Translations under genes and position numbers: made by a program
Shown here: positions 1,758-35,778 of the stretch, in pieces
How the letters are laid out: every line of letters begins with the position of its first letter
How positions within the stretch are numbered: the first letter of the stretch is position 1
DNA from: a virus
DNA: 54,320 bases
IMG/VR virus record: IMGVR_UViG_3300031673_000059
Span: 1-54,320 of that record
Direction: 5' to 3' (one strand)
Notes under the pieces: generated by a model
Databases searched by the model: none
Told to the model about the DNA's origin: nothing
Seen by the model: the letters and a program-made list of their open reading frames with translations, nothing else

Positions 1758-1784
1758 CGAAACCCCGACCTATCACCTACATAG

Positions 1785-1792
1785 GTTCTACC
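1785..1792 (-). promoter_or_regulatory. GGTAGAAC -10-like motif, 27 nt upstream of ATG 1757
   Basis: Plus strand reads gttctacc. The TAG inside the motif is the stop of the frame-B ORF ending at 1788. Confidence 0.45.
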
Positions 1793-2231
1793 GGCAGCGC
1801 CAGGCTGCGCGCATGGTCTCTGGACGAACCATGTCGAAGTTCTCTCTGTGTCGCCTTATGCACGGCTCCCTGCGGAGAACACGGAGGCGGGTCGTCCAAC
1901 CGCCACCACGAGCAACATACGCATCAGTGATGCTGTATATGGCGTTCAGGTAAGCCCCACGAACTGGCGGCTCGGCGACGAAGTCGAACGTCATGATCTG
2001 GTAATCGACAACGCCGCCCTGCTCATCAATCGATCCACGACCGCTTTGAGAGATACCGACGCTCGAACCTTCGTTGAGCGCAGCCCGGAACCGCTCAGCG
2101 GCCTCGCCACGCAGCTCGAAGGCCGACGTCATCGTGCTCGCCCACGATTGGGTTCCGGTGACCGGGTTCTGGTTCGACGCAGCACCAGTAGGTGCCTCGG
2201 GCAGCGCGACTCTTACCTCGTCTGCTGATGT
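1788..2231 (-). CDS. +1-frame continuation of the gp23-like module of the FGE fusion protein (frameshift, error or pseudogene)
   Basis: The C-terminal part of track ORF 1788..2516 (...SADEVRVALPEAPTGAAS...MTSAFELRGEAAERFRAAL...) continues the order of conserved blocks seen in the capsid paralogs. Over the same DNA, the tail of frame A is Arg-rich and junk-like. Confidence 0.4.
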   Translation of the reverse strand, partial: TSADEVRVALPEAPTGAASNQNPVTGTQSWASTMTSAFELRGEAAERFRAALNEGSSVGISQSGRGSIDEQGGVVDYQIMTFDFVAEPPVRGAYLNAIYSITDAYVARGGGWTTRLRVLRREPCIRRHRENFDMVRPETMRAAWRCR

Positions 2232-5200
2232 TGTCGAGGTAGAAAAGCATTCCGGCTCGGTTGTCGAGTGGTTGAAGAGGGGGCGGCCAGAAGGGGTTGG
2301 AGAGTCCCTGTCTGACGAGGGGTCCTGCGAACCGGAGGAATGCTGAGTCGCTGCCCCCCTCAGCGACGACTCGGTCCATGTGTCGCTGGTGGTTTTCGAG
2401 GAGCATGCCTGTAAGAGCTCTTGTGAAACTGTCGTCGACTCCTTCGAGGAGGGGGGCCCATTTCTGGGTGTAGCGGTTGACGATGCTCTGAAACTCTGGT
2501 GCCTCAGCAGCGGCACCTCCAGGCCGCTCTTGGAGTAACTCCTGCCTCAACCTCGTCATGGTAGCGAGGATCTCTGATGGTTGAATCGGCGGTGTCGCAG
2601 ACCCAGTTGAGTCCTCGGACGACGCGACCGTCGTCCACACCTCGCTCGGGGGTGCCGTCGTCGATGGTGGCGCAGAAGACGTTGAGTCCGAGTAACTCGG
2701 GTCCGGGAGCGCCGCCGACGATCCGGACCCACTCAGAAAATCCGAGTCACCTCGCTCTCCAGGCTGACCTGGGCCCGAGCCAGCAACGATGTTCACCGGC
2801 TCGGATGATCCTGGAGTCGAAGGCCTCTCCATGCTGGTAGGACTGCCAGTTACCTCCTCGGACGGTGCAGGATCCGAACCCCATCTGCTCGATGGCTCGG
2901 TCCATGACGGATCGTAGGTAGATTCGACCGCTGGTGTTCCGGGGGGCGATTCCGAAGGTTCCCTCGACGATGTGTGTGAGTGGTCTTGGGTTGACCATGA
3001 TGGCCGCCGCTTCTGCTCTTGTGATGTTTGGGCCGTAGAGGGCCCTAACCCAAAAGGGACGTCATCGGGCCCTCCATGCCGCCCGTGGACCGGCCGTAAA
3101 GTCGGGGAGTTCGGGATCGAGCCACCAGGAATCGGCCCGATCCCACCCCTGCCAGTCTCCGCCTCTGAGCGTGTAGGCGTCGATCCCGATGTAGTGCGCG
3201 ACTTCGGGCGAGACTCGCATCCAGTTGGCTGGGTTTCTGACGGTGAGCTCGTAGATTCGTTGGGCCGCCGCCGCGACCCTGGCGATAAAGGGAGGTCACC
3301 TTGCTCTCCAGGCGCACCTGAGTCCGACGTCTCTGACGTCGTTTCCGGCACCTCGCTGCCGTCTGGCGACGAAGCCCTCGTCCTCTCCTCTGAGGACCTT
3401 AGGTCGATCCTCGGCGGTGATTGCGATGTAGGGGGCGTAGATGAACCCGGTGTCAAGGACTGTGTCGCCCTTGTAGCCGAAGAGGAACCCCGTCCTGTCT
3501 CCGTCCTGGGACTGGTCAACATGGATGAGGCGGCCGCCGTCTTGGGATGAGAATGGGGGCTCTGGGTGGACCGTCCACCCAGGCCTGATCCGAAACCCGA
3601 GTCACCTCGCTCTCCAGGCCCCTCGGAGTCCGAGTCCGTGGTCGAGGTCCCAGCCCCAGACTCTGCCGGTGTCGAGGCCTGGGTCGGCGAGTTCGAGCCA
3701 GCAGATCCCCCGGACCCTGATCCGGGGCTGGAAGGGTCCGAGCCGACCGGCGTTGCGTCCTCCGCGTAGGGGCCCAACCCCATCCCGAGGTCGGAGTAAG
3801 CGTCCATGTGCTCGTAGTCAGCGTACCGGTCGAGCAGCTGCCCGGAAGGAGACATGAGACTGTCGCTCAAGGACCCCGAGCTGGTCTCGCCATCCTGGAG
3901 ATCCCTCTGGGGGTCGTCCGACATTCCAACTGATGGACTTGAGGATGTATGGGATACCGTCCTGGTAGAAGATGCCTCCGAGGTAGCAGCGTCCGAGTTC
4001 GCCGAGCTCGATCTCGCTGCATGGGTTGACCCCGAAGGCTCCGTAGGGTCCGAGCTAATGAACCCTGGCTCTCCAGGCTGTCCTGACGCCTCCTCGGTCA
4101 ATGTTGTGGCCCCTGAAGGAGGCGCCTCGCTCCCAATCCCGGGGGGACTCATCCCAGGAGTAGCTTCGGATGAGGAATCGATGATGTTGCATGCGCTCTC
4201 GGACGGAGAGGCCTGCGTAGGGTCCGAGCTAGGCTCTCCAGGCTGGTCGGAGTCCTGCGTCCTGGGCCCCTCCGACTGCTCGTCCGATGTTGCTGACGGG
4301 GAACGGATAGGTCCCGCCGTTGAGATGATATGTAGGAGGGAATCCGTAGTCAGGAACGGGGTTGATGTAGGGTCCGGGCGTTGCTCGCCGTTAGCGATGT
4401 AGCCATTCTCGGGCAGGTCCTCGACCCCTCGAACCCACTGGCACCTGGTCCATTCGAAGACGTTCCCGCAGTTGTCGTGGAGCCCCCAGTTGTTCGGATC
4501 CTTCAGGCCAACTGCCTTGTGCCCGTCCTCAAACTCGCCGCCGAACCAGGCGATCTTCTTTAGGTCCTCATCCGTGTCGCCGTTGGGGTAGCGCGTAGTC
4601 GCTCCGGCCTTAGTCGCGTATTCCCACATCGCCTCAGAGGGGAGCTGAAAGCCGACCCGCTCACCCTTCTCGTTCCAGAGCCAGGCCTGGTAGGCCGCCT
4701 CGACCTCTGCTGAGAACACCAGCGCTTGGTTCTGGACAGGCAGAGGCATGATGTCCGTGTTGACCTGTTGCTCCCACTCTCTCCACGTCAGCGTGAAGGT
4801 CTGATCTGAGTGTGTGAACTTGCAGTTGGTCAACCGTGCAAAGTCCAGCCGGTTGATGAAGTCCTCGACCTCACGGCACCGATCCCAGGAGACGCTCTCA
4901 ACAGGGTGCTCCCCCCACCTGCGCCCATCAGAGTCCTTCAACTCCATGCGGGTCGCAGGCCCGAACGGCGCGTCACCCATGCGGGTGACGTTAAGCCCCT
5001 CCTCGACCATTTCGGTCGTAGGGAAGTGACTCGGGAACTCACGTGTGACGCGGTACCACTCACGCCCGGTCCACGGGTACTTCGCCATCAGGAATGGCTC
5101 GTCGAAGGTCCGCTTGACCTGTTGCTGGGCCGTCTCATCATCAGGGTCCGCAGTGGGACCCATCATGAACTCACCCGAAGGGATCAGAACGAAGATCATC

Positions 5201-5400
5201 CCCGTCGTCTTGTGCTGATACTCAGCCAGGCCTTGGGAGTTGAGCCCGAGACACGAGAAGAGCTCAGTCTCCTCTACGCGCAGTCCGTAGGGGACGTCGT
5301 TTCCGGCCCTGCGGATTCGCGTGATGTAGTCGCCGCGATCGGCCGCGTCGCCTGTAGCCTGCCAACGGCGTTCTGCTGCTCTTAAAGCGGCGTCTGACAT
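2095..5400 (-). CDS. FGE-sulfatase (SUMF1/EgtB/PvdO-type) domain protein with long S/P/T/G/E/D-rich disordered tether and C-terminal gp23-like N-arm module
   Basis: ORF track, 1101 aa. FGE signatures: IPSGEFMMGP, HPVESVSWDRC, LPSEAMWEYATKAG, NNWGLHDNCGNVFEWT. The C-terminal QKWAPLLEGVDD..LLENHQRH..LQPLDNRAGMLFYLD matches the T4 gp23 N-terminal region and the paralogs at 33.8-35.8 kb. AGGAG lies upstream of ATG 5400. Confidence 0.8.
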   Translation of the reverse strand: MSDAALRAAERRWQATGDAADRGDYITRIRRAGNDVPYGLRVEETELFSCLGLNSQGLAEYQHKTTGMIFVLIPSGEFMMGPTADPDDETAQQQVKRTFDEPFLMAKYPWTGREWYRVTREFPSHFPTTEMVEEGLNVTRMGDAPFGPATRMELKDSDGRRWGEHPVESVSWDRCREVEDFINRLDFARLTNCKFTHSDQTFTLTWREWEQQVNTDIMPLPVQNQALVFSAEVEAAYQAWLWNEKGERVGFQLPSEAMWEYATKAGATTRYPNGDTDEDLKKIAWFGGEFEDGHKAVGLKDPNNWGLHDNCGNVFEWTRCQWVRGVEDLPENGYIANGEQRPDPTSTPFLTTDSLLHIISTAGPIRSPSATSDEQSEGPRTQDSDQPGEPSSDPTQASPSESACNIIDSSSEATPGMSPPGIGSEAPPSGATTLTEEASGQPGEPGFISSDPTEPSGSTHAARSSSANSDAATSEASSTRTVSHTSSSPSVGMSDDPQRDLQDGETSSGSLSDSLMSPSGQLLDRYADYEHMDAYSDLGMGLGPYAEDATPVGSDPSSPGSGSGGSAGSNSPTQASTPAESGAGTSTTDSDSEGPGERGDSGFGSGLGGRSTQSPHSHPKTAAASSMLTSPRTETGRGSSSATRATQSLTPGSSTPPTSQSPPRIDLRSSEERTRASSPDGSEVPETTSETSDSGAPGEQGDLPLSPGSRRRPNESTSSPSETQPTGCESRPKSRTTSGSTPTRSEAETGRGGIGPIPGGSIPNSPTLRPVHGRHGGPDDVPFGLGPSTAQTSQEQKRRPSWSTQDHSHTSSREPSESPPGTPAVESTYDPSWTEPSSRWGSDPAPSEEVTGSPTSMERPSTPGSSEPVNIVAGSGPGQPGERGDSDFLSGSGSSAALPDPSYSDSTSSAPPSTTAPPSEVWTTVASSEDSTGSATPPIQPSEILATMTRLRQELLQERPGGAAAEAPEFQSIVNRYTQKWAPLLEGVDDSFTRALTGMLLENHQRHMDRVVAEGGSDSAFLRFAGPLVRQGLSNPFWPPPLQPLDNRAGMLFYLDNISRRGKSRAARGTYWCCVEPEPGHRNPIVGEHDDVGLRAAWRGR

Positions 5401-5418
5401 AATGATCTCCTGGTCTCT

Positions 5419-5427
5419 GTTTTACCC
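5419..5427 (-). promoter_or_regulatory. GGGTAAAAC -10-like motif, 18-nt leader with AGGAG before ATG 5400
   Basis: Plus strand reads gttttaccc, in the 28-nt gap between the ATPase and the FGE gene. Confidence 0.45.
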
Positions 5428-5428
5428 A

Positions 5429-6817
5429 TCAGACTCCAAAGAGCGCATGGAAGAAGCTCTTGGGCTGGTAGGCCTTCTTCTCGGGCTGCTTGGGCGTGAC
5501 CTTGACATTGGGCGAACTGGGACCACTCGACGGATCGAGTCGCAGCAGCTCATCACCGCTCATGGGGCCCCGAAGGAAGCTGTAGGCCCACCGGATCTTG
5601 GTCACAGCGTGCTCCCCGCTCTTCTTCAGGATCAGGAAGTGCCGCTGAGGAATCGACGTCAGGGTCGACGTGTCCACGTTCCGGCTGGAAAGCTCCTTCT
5701 TGAGGTCCCGGGCGCAGTCCCGGGGCCGCAGCTTGCCGAGGAACCAAGTGCCGACGTTGGTCAGCGCCTTGTAGTCCATGTCGTTAGGGTTCTGAGTCCC
5801 GATCAGCATACCGATGCCCTGGGCCCGGCCCTGAGCGAGGAGCGTGCAGATCGGCTTCTTGGTCGGCGGGTTGAGCGGGTAGGGCGGGAGGTAGCCCCGC
5901 GCCTCGTCCAAGACGACCAGCAGCTTCAGCTTGTTGCTGGCCGGCGCCCGGAACATGTAGTCCACGATCGCCGACAGCAGCATGCCAGCGAAGAACTGCC
6001 GCTCACCCTCGTCCAGGTGTCGGAGGGAGAACACCGAGACCTTAGGCTTGCCGGTGCCCACGTAGCTCTCGATCGAGAGCGGAGAACCGTCGAGCCACTT
6101 GGTCGCTTGCCGCCGGAAGCCGACGATCGACCGAGCGATCTGCATCCGCTTCTTCTTGGGGAAGAAGTCGTCGAGGCTCAGGCCATCGATCTCCTTCAGA
6201 TTGGCAGGGGGCGTGTTCAGAGCGGCGGACCACGTGTCCAGACCGGCCGCCTGACCCGAGGCCCAGGCGTCGACCATCACGTCCGTCAGGAAGACGTTCG
6301 CGGGGTCGGTCATGGGGTCGGCGGTGTGGCCGATCGCGTTGAGGACTCCGGCGACCAGGGCCGAGGCCCGGTCCCGCAGCGCTTGCTCACTGTAGTTGCC
6401 GGTGGGAGCGTCGAAGGACGCCAGGACGTTGACGGACTGGCCGCCGCCTCGGGTCTTGCCGGGGGCGTAGATCGTGACATCGGCGGCCGACTTCCACCGC
6501 TGGACGTTGGGAGCCAGGTGGCCGAGCTCCTTCCGAGCTCGGTCAGCGATCTCGCCCGGGTCCTTGCCGTCCTCCGCCCAGGGAGCGAATTCGCCGGCGG
6601 CCAGACCGGGGAAGGCCAGGGCCAGATTGGTGAGGTCGCCCTTGGGGTCAATGATGATCGCGGACGCGCCGCTCAGCACGGCCTCTTCGATCGTGGCGAC
6701 GGTGGCGCCGGTCTTGCCGGAGCCGGTCCGACCCAGGACCACGCCGTGGGTGGTAAGGTCGGCGGGGTCGATCGTGAGAGGAGTTCCGTCGTTCTTGGTG
6801 CCGATCAACATGCTCAT
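5429..6817 (-). CDS. HerA/FtsK-superfamily P-loop ATPase, DUF853 (YjgR)-like
   Basis: Walker A is VLGRTGSGKTG, Walker B is LLVVLDEARG, followed by GIGMLIGTQNPNDMDY. The start is moved to ATG 6817 (MSMLIGT...) because GGTAGAAA sits exactly 5 nt upstream. The track ORF starts at 6856. Confidence 0.8.
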   Translation of the reverse strand: MSMLIGTKNDGTPLTIDPADLTTHGVVLGRTGSGKTGATVATIEEAVLSGASAIIIDPKGDLTNLALAFPGLAAGEFAPWAEDGKDPGEIADRARKELGHLAPNVQRWKSAADVTIYAPGKTRGGGQSVNVLASFDAPTGNYSEQALRDRASALVAGVLNAIGHTADPMTDPANVFLTDVMVDAWASGQAAGLDTWSAALNTPPANLKEIDGLSLDDFFPKKKRMQIARSIVGFRRQATKWLDGSPLSIESYVGTGKPKVSVFSLRHLDEGERQFFAGMLLSAIVDYMFRAPASNKLKLLVVLDEARGYLPPYPLNPPTKKPICTLLAQGRAQGIGMLIGTQNPNDMDYKALTNVGTWFLGKLRPRDCARDLKKELSSRNVDTSTLTSIPQRHFLILKKSGEHAVTKIRWAYSFLRGPMSGDELLRLDPSSGPSSPNVKVTPKQPEKKAYQPKSFFHALFGV

Positions 6818-6822
6818 GGTTG

Positions 6823-6830
6823 TTTCTACC
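6823..6830 (-). promoter_or_regulatory. GGTAGAAA, 5 nt, ATG 6817
   Basis: Plus strand reads cat ggttg tttctacc. Confidence 0.55.
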
Positions 6831-6909
6831 TTTCTTAGCCTTGTGGCTTCAACCACTACGCCGCCCTGCCACGATTCATCGAACTCGGGTATCAGTAAGC
6901 AGGTGACTT

Positions 6910-14983: not shown

Positions 14984-16183
14984 ATGTCTGGATTCGCGAC
15001 AGCGGGTACTGGTTCAGAGGGTGTTCTAAACGCCGTTTCGCACTCTGGAATCGACCACACGGGTATTCTCGGGGTCGGATCCGGAGGTGGCGACGCGTTT
15101 CCCATCGGGTGCATGGTCCCCTTTGGGGCCCTTGTCTCCGCCATTCCAGCCGGGTGGCTGGCCTGTGACGGGTCGGAGTATGGGCGTACAGGCGGAGACC
15201 CGAGCCCACAGCCCACGCTGTTTGGAATCATCGGCACCGCCTGGGGCATCGGTGACGGGTCCACTACCTTCAACGTCCCAGATCTCCGACACCGTGGTGT
15301 TGCCGGCATCAACGACGGAACACTACCTGCCGGCCCCGACGGTGGGTTCACCACTCGATCCCTTGGACAGCTCGCCGGCTCCGAGACCCACTCCCACACC
15401 GTCAACAACCACTCCCACACCATCTCGTCAGACGGAGCTCACACCCACACAGGCACTACTGATCCCAACGGTGTCAACATTATTGAGAGCTTGGCACCCA
15501 CTTACCCTGGTAACGACGGCATCAACTCGCGTCACACCCACACGTTCACCACCGGCGGCGCATCTCCTTCGACCCACTCTCACGGCTCGGTCACTGGACA
15601 ATCCAACCCGTCTACCAACGCGCAGCCTGGGTTCGGTCCGACCGCGTTCTGCCCGTTCATCATCAAGGCTGTAGCAGTTGGCGGTGGGGCTGGTGGTATC
15701 TCGAACCAGGTCAACGCAGGTCCTCTCCAGGGACCCCAGCCCACGATCAACTACATCGAAGGCCCCGGGATCTCGATCACGGCGGTGGAGAACATTCCTC
15801 AGAACCGCAACGACGTTACGATCAACGCCACTGGGGCGTTCGCGACACTTCCCTTCGGGTGCACCTTCGTCACTCCGAACAACTACGCAGTCGCCCACGG
15901 CGATGGTGCTCAGACTGAGATTGGATCTCTTACGGTGATCACTCAGACAGCATCACCGATTGCCGGCGGAACGGTCACACTGTCGTGGAACGTCTCTTTC
16001 TCCGGAGGAGATGCTCGCGTGTTCGTGAATGGGGTTGCCGCCGGCACACCGGTCACCCTCTCCACAGCTAACGGCGCTAGTGCGCAAGCGATTGCCGTCG
16101 CGGCCGGGGACAGGATCGCGGTCGAGTATCAGACCGGAACAGCGCCCGGACCTGCTCTCTTTGAGGTACACGTAGGCCCGTAG
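14984..16183 (+). CDS. phage tail-collar domain fibre protein (MdpB-like)
   Basis: The collar signature is GCMVPFGALVSAIPAGWLACDGSEY...LFGIIGTAWGIGDGSTTFNVPDLRHRGVAG. It is followed by HSHTVNNHSHTISSDGAHTHTG repeats. Confidence 0.85.
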   Translation: MSGFATAGTGSEGVLNAVSHSGIDHTGILGVGSGGGDAFPIGCMVPFGALVSAIPAGWLACDGSEYGRTGGDPSPQPTLFGIIGTAWGIGDGSTTFNVPDLRHRGVAGINDGTLPAGPDGGFTTRSLGQLAGSETHSHTVNNHSHTISSDGAHTHTGTTDPNGVNIIESLAPTYPGNDGINSRHTHTFTTGGASPSTHSHGSVTGQSNPSTNAQPGFGPTAFCPFIIKAVAVGGGAGGISNQVNAGPLQGPQPTINYIEGPGISITAVENIPQNRNDVTINATGAFATLPFGCTFVTPNNYAVAHGDGAQTEIGSLTVITQTASPIAGGTVTLSWNVSFSGGDARVFVNGVAAGTPVTLSTANGASAQAIAVAAGDRIAVEYQTGTAPGPALFEVHVGP

Positions 16184-16186
16184 GTC

Positions 16187-16636
16187 CTAGTAGTTCTCAA
16201 ACTCGGCGTGGCCCTCATCGATGAGTGTGTCGCCTAGGCTCTTCCAGCCGCCCTCTACCTTGTATAGGCACACAATTAGCCAACGGCCATATTTGCCCTT
16301 GTCGCCGCTCTTGAAGGACCAGACGCGGAGCTTCTGACCGACGCCTAGGAGCTCCTCGGCGCGCTGCTCGGCCAGAGCACCCATCTCCTTCTCCTTGCCC
16401 CGCGTCTCCCAGGCGTCGACGCAGTCGTCGCTCTTGTCGTCTGGGGTCAGGACGGCGCCCTCGGCCAGCAGGCGGCAGTAGGCTCGGACATCGATCTCGA
16501 AGCCGATGTCAATTCGAAGGCGGAAGCTATCGCCGTCGATGACTCCTTCTAGTTTGCCCACATCCGGCACGACCTCAGCCTCTCTCCAGGGTGTATCGAA
16601 AGGCGTCGTCTCTTCGTCGGTCCACAGCTTGCCCAT
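16187..16636 (-). CDS. staphylococcal-nuclease (SNase/thermonuclease)-like protein
   Basis: GVIDGDSFRLRI...CVDAWETRG...GALAEQRAEELLGVGQKLRV...DKGKYGRWLIVCLY...LIDEGHA follows the order of SNase-fold blocks. Confidence 0.65.
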   Translation of the reverse strand: MGKLWTDEETTPFDTPWREAEVVPDVGKLEGVIDGDSFRLRIDIGFEIDVRAYCRLLAEGAVLTPDDKSDDCVDAWETRGKEKEMGALAEQRAEELLGVGQKLRVWSFKSGDKGKYGRWLIVCLYKVEGGWKSLGDTLIDEGHAEFENY

Positions 16637-16692: not shown

Positions 16693-17058
16693 ATGAAGAC
16701 CGGCGCGAGGAAGGCAGTCGTCCGTAAGCTACGGAAGATGGTGAACCGGCATATCGGCAACATGGTCGATGAGAAGTTCGAAATGGGCTGCCTGGCGGCA
16801 AGTCTGTTCCCGGACTGGGTTGAGAGCGACTACTCCACCTTTGATCTTTACCTGTTCCACGGCTGTGGAATCCCATGGAACATCGCCAGTCGCCTGGAGA
16901 CGATGGCTCACACCTACTACGAGATTCCATCTCTTCAGATTTGGATGCAGGTGGGATACACAAGAGCCGCCCAAGCAGCCGGACAAGGCCGAGAGGGCCA
17001 AATCCGAGCGCTGCTTGAAAGCGGCTCTAATGTGCTAGACGTGATGACGTTGATCTAG
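16693..17058 (+). CDS. hypothetical protein; C-terminal NVLDVMTLI
   Basis: ORF track, 121 aa. Confidence 0.65.
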   Translation: MKTGARKAVVRKLRKMVNRHIGNMVDEKFEMGCLAASLFPDWVESDYSTFDLYLFHGCGIPWNIASRLETMAHTYYEIPSLQIWMQVGYTRAAQAAGQGREGQIRALLESGSNVLDVMTLI

Positions 17059-18140
17059 ACGGCGATCGGCGCTTCGGTGCAGACCGTGGTGAGGATCCTG
17101 GTGCAGACCCGGTAGGGGTCGCAGTTGGCTCCGGGTCGCCGATCTTCGATGTAGCCGTAGCCCTGCTGGGCTACCTGGGCGGGGATGCGGATCGAGCAGC
17201 CGCGATCACTGTCACCGACCTTGAACGTGTTGATGTCGCACGTCTCGTGCTTGCCGGTCAGGCGCTTCTCCAGGCCGAAGCCGTAGTCTGCGATGTGCTC
17301 GGCGTGGACCTCCGACATCGCCTTGACCGCCGCCGCGATAGCCGACTTGCCGGTGCCTGGGTCTCGCATCTCCTTCGTGGAGAAGTTTGTGTGAGCGCCC
17401 GCACCGTTCCAGTCGCCTTGCTCAGGCTTGCAGTTGAGGGTGGCCGAGATGCCGTAGTCCTCGCCGATCCGGAACAGGAGCCAACGCGCAAAGATCAGGT
17501 GATCTGCGACTGTGAGAGGGTCGGCTGACTCGCCCGGGAACCCAGGACGATGACCGATCTGGAACTCCCACTGACCCAGCATGACTTCGGCATTGATGCC
17601 GTAGATCATCAGCCCGGCCCTCATGCAGGCGCTGAGGTGATCCTCGACCAGCTTGCGGCCCGCAACCTCGTCAGCTCCGACGCCGCAGTAGTAGGGTCCC
17701 TGAGCGCGCTGCGGGAGTCCCTTCTCCGGCCATCCAAGGGGGCGGCCAGTGTCTAGGTTGTAGAGCGTGTACTCCTGCTCGAAGCCGAACCAGGGATCGT
17801 GGTCCTCAGCGACCGACATGATGTCCCGCAGACGGCTGCGAGTGTTGGTCTTGTGCGGCATGTCGTCTGGAGTGGTGACCTCGCACAGGACCAGGAAGTT
17901 GGCGCCGCCGCGAATCGGGTCGTTGACGACGCGAACCGGGGTGAGCACCTGGTCTGAGTTGGACGTCCCCGCCTGATTGGTCGACGAGCCGTCGAAACCC
18001 CAGACCGGAAAGGACGTGTAGTCGATGACGCCCTTCTGATCATCGGGTAGATAGACCACACGGGTCTTCGACCGAAGGTTCTGGACAGGGATGTCGGCGG
18101 ATCCGCCGTCCATCCAGATGTATTCAGCTCGTACGTGCAT
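17055..18140 (-). CDS. glnII: glutamine synthetase type II (eukaryote-like GSII)
   Basis: 361 aa. Blocks are AEYIWMDGG...LRSKTRVV, FGFEQEYTL, YYCGVGA, INAEVMLGQWEFQIG, GAGAHTNFS, RLTGKHET and SIRIP...YIEDRRPGANCDPY. Confidence 0.92.
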   Translation of the reverse strand: MHVRAEYIWMDGGSADIPVQNLRSKTRVVYLPDDQKGVIDYTSFPVWGFDGSSTNQAGTSNSDQVLTPVRVVNDPIRGGANFLVLCEVTTPDDMPHKTNTRSRLRDIMSVAEDHDPWFGFEQEYTLYNLDTGRPLGWPEKGLPQRAQGPYYCGVGADEVAGRKLVEDHLSACMRAGLMIYGINAEVMLGQWEFQIGHRPGFPGESADPLTVADHLIFARWLLFRIGEDYGISATLNCKPEQGDWNGAGAHTNFSTKEMRDPGTGKSAIAAAVKAMSEVHAEHIADYGFGLEKRLTGKHETCDINTFKVGDSDRGCSIRIPAQVAQQGYGYIEDRRPGANCDPYRVCTRILTTVCTEAPIAV

Positions 18141-33703: not shown

Positions 33704-33844
33704 ACCTACGACTGGGAGGTGGGCGCCAGGCTGGTTGCCCAACTGATCGCGTCCAAGGACCCACTAGGGCTGGTCGAGTCGTGGGAGACGCCGGACAACT
33801 GCGAGCTGCCAGGATATGGCCGGGTGCGGATCGACAACGTCTAG
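33704..33844 (+). other. 46 in-frame coding-like codons after TGA 33701 (readthrough / selenocysteine / sequencing error candidate)
   Basis: TYDWEVGARLVAQLIASKDPLGLVESWETPDNCELPGYGRVRIDNV*. Most third positions are G/C, as in genes here. There is no usable start codon. It ends in a 4-nt overlap (ctag) with the stop of the convergent capsid gene. Confidence 0.4.
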
Positions 33845-34779
33845 TAGGGCGTTCCGGCCAACGTGATCAGAGATGCGAACTCCGGCCTCACGAGTGTGAT
33901 TTTGTGCCGGGTGCGGATCGCGCGCCGAAGAGTCTTGTCGGCCGGATCTACGAAGTTCGGTGTGATCTCGACCATGGTGTAAGGACTGTAGATGACGCAC
34001 GTATCCATTACGCTGTCGTCTGCCTGATACCAGGCCAGCAGCTTCCCTACGGGGAAGAGGGGATCCAGGTAGACGCCCCTGCCGTCAACCTCGCCGATTT
34101 TGGCGATGCCGTCTGCCTCTTGGACGTCAAAGCCAAGCTGGGCCAGCATCGCCGCGTTGCCAATGACCCTGTTTGCCGGGTTCCGCTGAGACCCCCGATG
34201 GACGATGTGGGCCGCCCTGTCCAGAGCTTCTTTGAGATCACCGCCGGCGGCCAACTCGATCTTGTTGTTGTCCAGGACGCCGTTCAGGATCGTTCCTACG
34301 ATCTCCCGAGCCACCTCGGTCAGGAGTGCGTCGATGTTCAGAGCCCCCTCTTCGTTGACGTCGGTGTGTGCCTTGCAGCGCCTCGACTCCGCTCGGATCT
34401 CTTGAGGGATGATGTCCAGCACGACGGAAGGCACCTTGACCTTCCTCTCGACGCCGTCTTGAATCAGGGTCGCCTCCTCCATCTCCCCGAAGCGCGGCTT
34501 GTAGTAGTAGACGATCCCGATCGGCCCAGTCATCGGCTGCACCGCGCAGAGGTCCGGGAGCACGTGGGTCCGGACCGAGGCCTTGAGGTTATCGAAGAGA
34601 TCCTCCGTCCACGAGCCGAGGACCAATGCCCGGGTCTCCTCGACGAGACGCTGAAGGTGTCTGCTCTGGTTCTCGCAGACCATGGCAGCGATGTTCGACC
34701 TGTAGCCGTCCTCTAGGCCCCACTTGGTGCGGAGCTTCTCTAGATAGCTCTCGTCCGGCATACCATCAAGCTGAGTCAT
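33841..34779 (-). CDS. T4 gp23/gp24-family capsid-fold protein, compact paralog A
   Basis: LRTKWGLEDGY..MVCENQSRH, DLCAVQPMTGPIGIVYYYK, ANRVIGNAAML and GVYLDPLFP..LAWY....MDTCVIYSPY match the remembered T4 gp23 blocks (KWKPLLEG..IFENQ, VQPMNSPTGQVF, YRVYIDQY..GYKGP..DAGIYYAPY). The start is ATG 34779 (AGGAGG 4 nt upstream). Confidence 0.85.
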   Translation of the reverse strand: MTQLDGMPDESYLEKLRTKWGLEDGYRSNIAAMVCENQSRHLQRLVEETRALVLGSWTEDLFDNLKASVRTHVLPDLCAVQPMTGPIGIVYYYKPRFGEMEEATLIQDGVERKVKVPSVVLDIIPQEIRAESRRCKAHTDVNEEGALNIDALLTEVAREIVGTILNGVLDNNKIELAAGGDLKEALDRAAHIVHRGSQRNPANRVIGNAAMLAQLGFDVQEADGIAKIGEVDGRGVYLDPLFPVGKLLAWYQADDSVMDTCVIYSPYTMVEITPNFVDPADKTLRRAIRTRHKITLVRPEFASLITLAGTPY

Positions 34780-34824
34780 AGTTCCTCCTGATGCGGAGGG
34801 TACCACAACTACATCAGATTTACA

Positions 34825-35778
34825 TCAGACAATCTGCGCCAACCGCTCCAGGACGTTGACCTTAACCACCTGGATGTGGCTCGGATGGGCCACATGGATG
34901 TTGTGGTTCAGGTAGATCGCGAAGTTGTGGCGGCCGTCCATCGGATCGAGCGGGTAGCAGAAGGGCGAGTAGACGACCGGCGTGTCTACGATGCTTGGTC
35001 CCATGTACCAGAGCATTACTTCACCGTCAGGGAACAGCGGATCCAGGTAGACGTGCATCCTCTGCTTGTAGACGCCTACCTTCTTCACCAGGCCGGTATC
35101 AGTCGTGTCCCACTCGTCCGGATCCTCCGGCGAGAAAAGCTCCAACATCTTCTCATTGCCGATCACGTGATTGGCCGGGCCCCGCATGCAGCGCTTGTGG
35201 ACCATCTGCGAGGCGCGAAGGATATCAGTGTCGAACGCGGTGTAGGTCGACTCCAACACATTGCCGGCGGCCGATCCCGCGCCGTGCATGACGCCCAACA
35301 CCTCGCGGATGGACGCCAGCATGACCGAGTCGAACACGCTGTCGATGAGCGCGAAGTTTCCTGGGTAGATCCTGACGCCGAGTCGCCTGATGGAGGCTTG
35401 GACGTTGACCGTCTGCAGGTTCAACGTCATCGTCGGGATCGATGTGCTCCCAGGAGTAGTGGGTCCGGCCGGCGTGGTGATGTTGGTTTGGCCGTAGAAG
35501 CCGATGGTGTCTGATGGCCTCCGTAGGGGCTGGACCGACACCATGTCGATCAGGGGGCAGTGCACCCAGGCCTTCACGAGAGCTCGGTAGAACTTGTCCT
35601 TCCAGTTGTCGCCATAGGTCTCTTCCAGATCATCGGGGATCAGCGATGAGCAAAGGACGTTGGCCTGGTTCTCCAACAGTAGAGCGATGACGCCAGAGCG
35701 CTTGTGATGGCCGGGGAGGTAACCCTCCCACTTCTCGGTCAGAGCCTTGATGTGGTCGTTGTCCAACATGGTGGGCAT
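34825..35778 (-). CDS. T4 gp23/gp24-family capsid-fold protein, compact paralog B; C-terminal NVLERLAQIV
   Basis: TEKWEGYLPG..LLLENQANV, MVSVQPLRRPSDTIGFYG, ANHVIGNEKML and MHVYLDPLFPDGEVMLWYMGPSIVDTPVVYSPF. Confidence 0.85.
   Translation of the reverse strand: MPTMLDNDHIKALTEKWEGYLPGHHKRSGVIALLLENQANVLCSSLIPDDLEETYGDNWKDKFYRALVKAWVHCPLIDMVSVQPLRRPSDTIGFYGQTNITTPAGPTTPGSTSIPTMTLNLQTVNVQASIRRLGVRIYPGNFALIDSVFDSVMLASIREVLGVMHGAGSAAGNVLESTYTAFDTDILRASQMVHKRCMRGPANHVIGNEKMLELFSPEDPDEWDTTDTGLVKKVGVYKQRMHVYLDPLFPDGEVMLWYMGPSIVDTPVVYSPFCYPLDPMDGRHNFAIYLNHNIHVAHPSHIQVVKVNVLERLAQIV

Follow-up and report, generated by a model that had tools for sequence, protein, structure and literature searches.

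The stretch analyzed here (the window) comprises all 54,320 nt of positions 1 to 54,320 of the IMG/VR virus record IMGVR_UViG_3300031673_000059, a 54-kb part of a ~200-kb genome, and the analysis was wholly computational. On the minus strand of this window, the region 5400→1788 probably represents one recoded gene (we put the probability at about 60%), in which the N-terminal part of an FGE-sulfatase/C-type-lectin-like domain would be completed by alternative C-terminal cassettes through serial -1 frameshifting. An initial annotation of the same DNA had pointed to a reading-frame break at 2205-2240. This frame discontinuity is real and conserved, and it is one step within a cassette array that occupies all three frames. 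That recoding is involved in the gene is very likely, and serial programmed frameshifting is, from the features of the sequence, the most likely way in which the three-frame array is decoded. The frames of the minus strand are named after the long open reading frame (ORF) of this region: X (f0, frame A of the initial annotation) is the frame of ORF 2095..5400, X+1 (f1) is the frame of ORF 1788..2516, and X-1 is the third frame.

An incomplete FGE domain and nine tandem cassettes

The frame X ORF (2095..5400, minus strand) starts with the ATG at 5400 and encodes 1101 aa without a stop. It consists of the N-terminal part of the FGE domain (N-part), an S/T/P-rich "transit" reading over the X-1 cassettes, and cassette 8. 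The N-part matched PF03781 with 70.2 bits (cut-off 23.3) over 4393..5193 (minus strand), corresponding to aa 70-336 and to positions 5-207 of the 255-position profile. The N-terminal two thirds of the domain are thus located within 5400-4393 in frame X. No complete PF03781 domain was found contiguous in one frame: the match stops at position 207 of 255, and the strands P.GP … RV.RGGSW … GFRCAR are absent from the contiguous frame. Downstream of the N-part, frame X is a low-complexity linker, and the tails are located in X-1 or, in X itself, 740 codons downstream.

Nine tandem cassettes follow on the minus strand from 4390 to 1788. Seven of them are in X-1 (ending at 4229, 4055, 3602, 3296, 3062, 2747 and 2504), one is in X (ending at 2095), and one is in X+1 (ending at 1788). 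Their common end motif is …[VL]RG..W … about 25 aa … AWR[ACG]R-stop, of which this strand of the window has nine copies.

The tails correspond to the C-terminal PF03781 positions that are missing from the N-part. The N-part was joined in silico to tails of the window and of L005, and the chimeras were scored against PF03781, with a scrambled tail as control. The score was 71.8 bits without a tail (profile positions 5-208) and 74.0 bits with the scrambled tail (5-230). The X and X+1 tails of the window gave 76.7 bits (5-254) and 80.3 bits (5-229), respectively, and the tail of cassette 7 gave 82.0 bits (5-236). In the related contig L005, the X tail gave 81.2 bits (5-255) and tail a gave 92.0 bits (5-254). 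Several tails therefore raised the score from 71.8 to 80-92 bits, and some of them reached profile positions 254-255. The tails of cassettes 1 and 3b brought no gain, and with the cassette 5 tail the match extended to position 223, short of the reach of the scrambled tail (230). Despite its weak Pfam support, the X tail of the window could be aligned to the other tails and to the termini of the relatives' long ORFs.

The AWRAR-stop end is conserved as a peptide and not only as a DNA repeat, because the copy at 3079 is written GCA TGG AGG GCC CGA TGA, compared to GCC TGG AGA GCG AGG TGA elsewhere. The repeated 19-mer GCCTGGAGAGCGAGGTGAC was considered as a promoter, ribosome-binding site or splice donor, and all three were ruled out, as the copy at 3079 writes the same AWRAR-stop in different codons and no start codon follows the motif. 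An alternative genetic code or stop codon read-through was also ruled out, as the cassettes end in TGA, TAG and TAA alike and ordinary genes are normal.

Cassette 1 (4229..4390; all cassettes are on the minus strand) is a tail only (…TYHLNGGTYPF…GLRPAWRA, stop TAG). The junction between the N-part and this cassette, GGACCCTAC at 4367..4375, reads PDPT in X and PGPY in X-1. It places C CCU in the X register, a candidate -1 slip in the ribosomal P-site. This DNA motif is kept at the same junction in the related contigs L001 and L006, and it also opens many cassettes. The slip-prone GGACCCTAC recurs at 4225-4217 in cassette 2 (4055..4228; LGPY…AWRARVH, stop TAG) and at 4051-4043 in cassette 3a (3818..4054, also in X-1; TGA end). 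Cassette 3a carries a ribonucleotide-reductase-like insert (…NPCSEIELGELGRCYLGG…), and its orthologues were found in L005, L022 and L024. A portal(gp20)-like block (GQLLDRYADYEHMD…PYAEDATPVG) lies at 3742..3843 in frame X, which is favored by the GC content at third codon positions and is the frame of this block in relatives too. As the block of the window gave no Pfam or PHROG match, its portal label is based on its motif; Portal_T4 and phrog_213 gave a weak match (E 0.03) from one unspecified cassette. Cassette 3b (3602..3817), with the slip-prone GGACCCTTC at 3739-3731, ends in the tail …RVRGICW…GLRGAWRAR (stop TGA).

In cassette 4 (3296..3601), a tail is preceded by an insert resembling the C-terminus of the major capsid protein (GFLFGYKGDTVLDTGFIYAPYIAIT; Pfam Gp23, E 0.0013). 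The in-register heptamer G GGU UUC of this cassette (3598-3592) is separated by a 6-nt spacer from a -22 kcal/mol hairpin downstream, and the phase pattern of its substitutions (7/19/16) identifies X-1 as the selected frame. Cassette 5 (3062..3295) combines a capsid "RNPANW" block with a tail, and has the heptamer C CCU UUA at 3292-3286. Cassette 6 (2747..3061) has C CCU UUU at 3058-3052 and is preceded by the AWRAR stop in different codons. A hairpin follows the heptamer in both cassettes. Cassette 7 (2504..2746; …VVRGLNWVCDTADSTIRDP…RAAWRCRC, stop TGA) has GGAUUUUC at 2743-2736, with U UUU in register, followed by a -16 kcal/mol hairpin. All eight slip sites of the window start at X phase 3, and none was found after the cassette 7 stop.

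The inserts present in most cassettes resemble parts of conserved phage proteins, namely the major capsid protein, portal, prohead protease, ribonucleotide reductase and DNA polymerase. These families were recognized when 68 cassettes from six genomes were scanned against Pfam and PHROG; scans with single window cassettes were mostly empty. Matches were obtained for Gp23/major head protein (three members, best E 1.7e-5), prohead protease (two members, best E 6.5e-5), ribonucleotide reductase (motif NPCGEI…L…CN; two members by phrog_367, best E 6.6e-5), DNA polymerase A (one member, best E 0.016) and T4-type portal (one member, best E 0.03). FGE-sulfatase itself was matched by one member (best E 0.012). 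This list is biased, because only fragments of well-conserved families are recognizable in such a scan. The capsid-like pieces are spread over separate cassettes in a non-native order.

Conservation and putative recoding signals of the array

Relatives were found via the FGE N-part: L001 (a 203-kb IMG/VR contig), L005 (Ga0307379_10033534) and L006, together with contigs L022-L026 from five long-ORF homologues. The 13 homologous long ORFs are 636-1733 aa long, and those inspected end in a tail, except P0012. The layout is shared by eight related phage contigs, namely L001, L005, L006 (partial), L022, L023 and L024, and, in its ancestral form, L025 and L026. The same plan was seen in the window, L001, L005, L022 and L024, each with 2-17 X-1 cassettes, a gp23-N-like X cassette that ends the long ORF, and a protease-like X+1 cassette; L023 follows this plan with a truncated X+1 cassette. 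Orthologous cassettes are recognizable across the genomes, and the offset from X to X+1 is the same in L001, L005, L022 and L024 at ~50% protein identity. Because the frame layout is conserved in relatives, it is neither an error nor decay.

The initial annotation had listed a sequencing or assembly indel and decay of the module among its explanations of the frame break. For an indel, only the frame change itself can be cited. An independent ENA contig (k141_1478031, L027) matches the window over 6306 nt with two single-nucleotide differences, at 2984 (inside cassette 6) and at 1479, and no indel, and the same frame offsets recur in at least five divergent genomes. The probability of an artificial frame break is therefore negligible. 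Decay is contradicted by the substitutions, which show purifying selection both on X-1 throughout the array and, past the X stop, on X+1.

The frame under selection was determined from the mismatches between L022 and L024. Counted by X phase, the mismatches in the N-part were 57/47/133, which indicates coding in X. Across the array they were 74/145/98, the pattern of X-1 coding, given that X-1 codon positions 2 and 3 fall on X phases 1 and 2, respectively. The number of X stops expected over the array was obtained by resampling synonymous codons according to the genome codon usage, with the X-1 protein kept fixed. No X stops were observed, compared to 11.0±2.8 expected in the window and 11.2±2.8 in L005, and 0 of 2000 simulations reached zero. 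The stop count in the control frame X+1 over the array was as expected, and the alternative frames of ordinary window genes have ~0.03 stops per codon. The third positions of the X-1 codons are shifted from G towards C and A, which makes frame X rich in S/T/P/D/E and free of stops. Judged by these counts, frame X is kept free of stops across the array, probably as a transit frame, while selection acts on X-1.

The X-1 cassettes open directly past the previous stop with CTCGGACCCTAC (LGPY), CTCGGATTTTCC (LGFS) or …CCCTTT[ACT] (xPF). Read in X, these boundary motifs give an in-register C CCU or U UUU, or the canonical heptamers C CCU UUN and G GGU UUC. Such a slip site is present a few nt past the previous stop at 47 of the 55 internal boundaries. 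Seven of the remaining eight boundaries precede a block in frame X, for which a shift would be unnecessary: in five genomes this is the last X-1 boundary, and in two it is the one before the portal-like block. The eighth has a one-base variant. Canonical XXXYYYZ heptamers in the X register were found 15 times within 24 nt after X-1 stops, compared to twice elsewhere (~7,870 codons), and U_UUU in the X register was found 21 times and 5 times, respectively.

The codon usage at the boundaries is also unusual. Phe is encoded by TTT in 36 of 46 cases at cassette starts, compared to 5 of 148 in cassette bodies and 36 of 199 (18%) in window genes. In 45 of the 55 X-1 cassettes, AGA or AGG encodes the first Arg of WRxR, compared to 26% genome-wide, which results in UGGAGR, whereas the terminal X and X+1 cassettes use CGN. 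The GGAG within this sequence points to a preference at the RNA level, because CGA would preserve the X peptide PGE just as well. In the window, GGAG is located ~11-13 nt before heptamers of the C CCU UUA type, which are followed by a 5-7 nt spacer and a hairpin.

Hairpins located 5-7 nt after canonical heptamers had a mean of -14.1 kcal/mol, compared to -8.6 kcal/mol for the controls (p=2e-5). This significance came after heptamer anchoring and a split by site class, and the test at a fixed offset gave p=0.13. Of the features that characterize -1 frameshifting, an in-register slippery site is present where the -1 frame opens, and a stimulatory element is present for the canonical heptamers.

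Cassettes 8 and 9 and the possible entry into frame X+1

Cassette 8 is in frame X and comprises an insert (2230..2500) and a tail (2095..2229). The insert contains a block similar to the gp23 N-terminus (QSIVNRYTQKWAPLLEG…AGMLFYLD), for which X is the selected frame in L022/L024, and the tail (NISRRGKSRAARGTYWCC…GLRAAWRGR, stop TGA) is similar to the tails of L001 and of cassette 7. Within the insert, QSIVNRYTQKW…ENHQRHMDRVVAE in X matches residues 19-57 of the capsid paralog encoded at 33841-34806. When a profile of this block from eight genomes was compared with the PDB, the top match was to T4 gp23 residues 8-62, with an E of 0.45 that is not significant alone. Cassette 8 does not contain a full-length HK97-fold gp23-like capsid protein (PF07068), as the similarity covers an N-terminal block of ~45-90 aa only and there was no Pfam Gp23 match. 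The region 2205-2240 is the seam between this capsid-like insert and the lectin-type tail. The initial annotation correctly placed the end of similarity to the capsid paralogs in X near …MLFYLD, at ~2230, but the break is a seam between insert and tail and not one inside a capsid module. The last 45 X codons, described there as Arg-rich junk (…AARGTYWCCVEPEPGHRNPIVGEHDDVGLRAAWRGR and the stop), are one of the nine RG..W…AWR.R-stop tails, and are kept at the end of the long ORF in relatives.

Cassette 9 (1788..2097, X+1) consists of a prohead-protease-like insert (…GISQSGRGSIDEQGGVVDYQIMTFDFVAEPPVRGAYL…; phrog_207, E 1e-4) and the tail YVARGGGW…RAAWRCR (stop TAG). The matches of the X+1 block to phrog_207 (prohead/head maturation protease) had E of 1e-4 to 6.5e-5. 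We take this block to resemble the GVSSRGLGS region of T4 gp21; no match to the protease-like profile was found in the PDB. The conserved X+1 sequence begins at the X stop (2097-2095), with ERFRAAL in the window, NRWNELV in L005 and ARWRNLI in L001, and continues as …GISQSGRGSIDEQGGVVDYQIMTFDFVAEPP…. Between L022 and L024, substitutions are most frequent at the third position of the X codons within the gp23-like block, and at the third position of the X+1 codons past the X stop.

Two full-length gp23-like paralogs, both with Pfam Gp23 matches, are encoded elsewhere in the window at 33841-34806 and 34825-35778 (minus strand). These adjacent proteins are unusually short (321 and 317 aa) and share 27% identity. 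Only remote relatives (<30% identity) were found for them, in Flavobacterium and Microcystis jumbo phages and in uncultured megaphage records.

In one of the options of the initial annotation, a programmed +1 shift at about 2224-2232 would fuse the gp23-like block to the +1 frame and restore one capsid-like protein. Its observation that the +1 frame (ORF 1788..2516) is open and coding-like down to the TAG at 1788 holds, and the capsid similarity in X does stop at ~2230, where X+1 is open. However, X+1 over 2220-2100 does not continue the block order of the capsid paralogs: it is S/T/P-rich, unconserved in relatives, and without detectable similarity to either capsid paralog (best E 0.69 in a two-sequence comparison). 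Downstream of it, X+1 is protease-like, followed by an FGE tail, and not capsid-like. At the proposed site (ctc gac aac atc agc aga cga), which is itself unconserved, neither a shift-prone codon nor a stop or a conserved stimulator is present. The fusion peptide …MLFYLDN/SADEVR… is unsupported, as the X+1 peptide is unconserved before the X stop and X carries a conserved tail over the same DNA. In the relatives, the long ORFs end at the X tail, and conserved +1-frame sequence exists from the X stop on. Programmed frameshifting as such was a sound suggestion for this gene, but a restored capsid-like protein made by a shift at this site is very improbable.

The more distant relatives L025 and L026 suggest how this arrangement came about. 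In these genomes the gp23-N-like cassette, like every other, lies in X-1 behind C CCU UUC, and it is the protease-like cassette with which frame X ends, as also in P0009-P0013. As the protease-like cassette ends frame X in L025 and L026, it is probably the default end that the transit frame had ancestrally. Relative to it, the gp23-N-like cassette is always one frame behind. In the lineage of the window, the boundary before the gp23-N-like cassette is without a slip site and the cassette is fused in frame to X. A 1-nt change in this lineage may thus have hard-wired cassette 8 into X, by which the old transit frame would have become X+1, with cassette 9 as the ancestral default end.

Consistent with an old transit frame, X+1 is open and S/T/P-rich over cassette 8 (2098..2543), with no stops in five genomes. 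The probability of this openness is 0.03-0.2 per genome, and the product of ~1e-6 is uncorrected for relatedness. In L023, which has the truncated X+1 cassette, there are six X+1 stops, as expected by chance. Because X+1 is open from ~2543 in genomes with an intact X+1 cassette, entry into X+1 is likelier near 2543-2490 than at 2224-2232. It would take place upstream of cassette 8, at UUU_C (2493-2490) or GTG 2516, or possibly at the X stop. The candidate +1 slip TTTC at 2490..2493 (UUU to UUC) combines a rare Phe codon UUU with a following C, and is kept in 5/5 genomes. The 18-mer GCGGCCTGGAGGTGCCGC at the boundary of cassettes 7 and 8 (2510..2527) is invariant in five genomes, has a GCGGC/GCCGC stem and a GGAGGU loop, and includes the GTG at 2516-2514 that opens ORF 1788..2516. 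Its invariance may reflect conserved peptides in two frames. Of the possibilities considered, two were rejected: reinitiation or +1 slippage at the X stop, where start codons and shift-prone codons are unconserved, and the C6 run in KWAPLLEG as a +1 site, which is unconserved in relatives. Of note, an extra GGGTTTC heptamer is located at 1759-1765 (minus strand), just upstream of the ATG of the next gene (1757), within AGGTCGGGGTTTCGATG, the promoter motif of the initial annotation.

Alternative explanations, neighboring genes and significance

In the proposed mechanism, the ribosome would meet, at the start of each X-1 cassette and a few nt past the previous stop, a slippery site in the X register with a GGAG Shine-Dalgarno (SD)-like element upstream and, at some sites, a hairpin downstream. 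A fraction of the ribosomes would shift by -1 at each site and complete the protein with that cassette, and those that never shift would terminate with cassette 8. Each cassette would provide an alternative version of the missing C-terminal third of the FGE domain, P.GP[YF] … RGG.W … AWR.R-stop.

Several observations weigh against this mechanism. Products of the distal cassettes would have as many as ~700 residues of disordered linker within a single domain. The canonical heptamers account for only ~1/3 of the sites. No hairpin enrichment was found after the C_CCU and U_UUU classes, which would need single-tRNA slippage. Part of the slip-motif conservation is at the protein level, because the motifs also encode the start of the X-1 peptide (LGF, PF or GPY). 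The X tail of the window gains 2.7 bits over the scrambled tail. In the AlphaFold2 model of the 1101-aa ORF, built with 12 homologues, the N-part was moderately confident and the X tail was undocked, with a predicted local distance difference test score of ~30. The insert identities are weak matches, with E of 1e-3 to 1e-5 each. A convincing signal for X+1 entry was not found, as UUU_C has no nearby stimulator, GGAG abuts GTG 2516, and the context of the X stop is unconserved.

Three other explanations of the array were also weighed. The array could be a library of silent cassettes, with one translated product and with the X-1 and X+1 cassettes serving as donors moved by recombination or gene conversion (as in pilS, vls or shufflons) or by a retroelement similar to diversity-generating retroelements (DGRs). 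The cassettes do lie in tandem in one orientation, with short conserved stretches of DNA at either end, their number varies from 4 to ~19 among relatives, and the FGE/C-type-lectin fold is, according to a passage in PMC5758913, the usual DGR target. However, the junction motif has the same DNA register in the N-part and in the cassettes, so that recombination within it would keep them out of frame. No reverse transcriptase (RVT family) was seen among the best 25 of 38 Pfam families for 60 window ORFs, and no template-like repeat of any tail was found outside the array in the 54-kb window, which led us to reject a DGR. Shufflon-type invertible cassettes were rejected as well, as the boundary repeats are all direct and no recombinase family was seen among the same best 25 of 38 families. 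The stop-free X, the rare TTT and AGR codons and the in-register heptamers would also be left without explanation, and we consider a silent library unlikely.

A relic array, in which tandem duplications of the 3' end have drifted out of frame, the frame X protein alone is functional and the +1 ORF is a decaying remnant, is also improbable. Gene callers report the long ORF in all relatives and some cassettes look degenerate (cassette 1 without Pfam extension, and the truncated X+1 cassette of L023), but orthologous cassettes persist at ~50% divergence with an X-1 or X+1 coding substitution pattern, AWRAR is kept through synonymous codons, slip sites are non-randomly placed and absent before X-frame blocks, and the openness of X+1 tracks cassette integrity. 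Somewhat more doubtful still are separate small proteins, made from the cassettes, and notably from ORF 1788..2516 starting at GTG 2516, by internal initiation or reinitiation, and acting alone or complementing the N-part in trans. This GTG is located in the invariant 18-mer with a GGAGG element, and in all five genomes an X+1 stop 7-9 codons upstream of it is followed by ~240 open codons. The GGAG abuts the GTG without a spacer, though, the X-1 cassettes start right after the preceding stop without ATG, GTG or TTG, and start codons near the X stop are unconserved. From the FGE fold, a 45-aa lectin tail would moreover be unable to fold without the N-part.

The gene is located in a neighborhood of early or replication-like type (HerA-like ATPase, helix-turn-helix genes, DnaB), of which the HerA-like ATPase upstream and the small helix-turn-helix genes downstream are conserved in relatives. 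The DUF87/HerA ATPase is always directly upstream of the FGE cassette gene in relatives. In the window, a 478-aa ORF at 5402-6838 (plus strand) is antisense to the HerA-like ATPase gene (5429-6856, minus strand); long spurious ORFs happen at this GC content. Another ORF of 867 aa at 51434-54037 (minus strand), with a GC of 0.87 at codon position 1, an L/R/G/D/V-rich translation and no family match, is probably spurious and would overlie a real gene, either in a different frame or on the opposite strand. In L005, an HNH-endonuclease-like ORF (1640-2290, frame 1; …CSKCG…IEADHFKGYDPEHHLTIQWLCKPCHAAK…) is located within the FGE N-part. A duplicated MWQRD…NGFIAHGE.CPD segment flanks it, pointing to the insertion of a mobile endonuclease or intron into the FGE cassette gene. 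Inteins are found in related phages: a DnaB-like gene of L023 (10839-11618) has Intein_splicing and LAGLIDADG matches, and L001 has a frame with a Hint-like CLSPDT… at ~15900-16500. The auxiliary genes of the window are typical for large phages and include a glutamine-synthetase-like gene (17055-18140, minus strand) and, elsewhere, two NUDIX genes, NADAR, ClpS, hemerythrin, a DHH phosphoesterase, an ATP-dependent DNA ligase and a tail-collar protein. No near or distant DNA matches of the window were found in known phages.

Serial -1 frameshifting in this gene would have counterparts among known systems. Escherichia coli dnaX (tau/gamma) likewise combines an upstream SD-like element, an in-register heptamer, a downstream hairpin and an alternative C-terminus. 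It has one site and one short alternative end, whereas there are eight candidate sites here and up to ~17 in relatives, with domain-completing cassettes of 50-120 aa and a long dual-coded transit frame. The tail assembly chaperones G/GT of lambda-like phages are also a conserved case of phage -1 frameshifting that adds a different C-terminal domain, and their hallmark is conservation of the overlap and not of the sequence. In contrast to the single two-ORF overlap of G/GT in the tail module, the sites here are serial, the neighborhood is of early or replication type, and the protein family is unrelated. The X-1 cassettes end with GGAGAG-CG-AGG-UGA-C, which resembles the +1 frameshift site of prfB (RF2) in its SD-like element, P-site codon and UGA-C, and a +1 shift there would return ribosomes to X. 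Unlike in prfB, re-pairing from AGG to GGU is poor, the cassette stops also include TAG and TAA, and the X stop before the +1 ORF is without such a context. Known frameshift genes have one site or occasionally two, and, to our knowledge, no gene has been described in which many serial sites select between domain-completing cassettes. Full-text searching of the literature found no description of such an array, which is limited evidence of novelty.

Alternative C-terminal segments adjoining a constant part are also known from shufflons, the Mu G segment and pilS/vls. Those systems act by inversion or gene conversion, with recombinases and inverted or long repeats, whereas the cassettes here are direct, in a fixed out-of-frame pattern and flanked by slip signals. 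In DGR variable proteins, such as Mtd of Bordetella phage and TvpA of Treponema, the FGE-type C-type-lectin fold varies in the C-terminal RGGSW…GFR segment, which forms the ligand-binding face, according to passages in PMC5758913, PMC5006420 and PMC6328139. The array shares the fold family and the variability in the C-terminal segment with these proteins, but its variants are hard-coded as cassettes that differ in length and inserts, and not by adenine-directed substitutions.

Gene callers output only an "FGE-sulfatase" ORF of 636-1733 aa whose tail is huge and disordered, and none of the cassettes. This family needs frame-aware annotation. The dual-coded stretch is unusually long, with ~1.9 kb in the window and 2.8 kb in L005. 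If ribosomes shift here, the array would represent a third route to the diversification of phage proteins, beside DGR mutagenesis and DNA inversion. We tentatively suggest a hard-coded repertoire, in which the ligand-binding C-terminal third of one FGE-fold lectin-like scaffold would be picked at translation via serial -1 sites from up to ~17 cassettes, many with mimic fragments, and which could supply DGR-independent binding or bait variants from one mRNA. A role in sensing, decoying or interfering with competing phages, or with host sensors of the mimicked proteins, is speculative. The embedded fragments of capsid, portal, protease, ribonucleotide reductase and polymerase point to an unexplored function in phage-phage or phage-host conflict.

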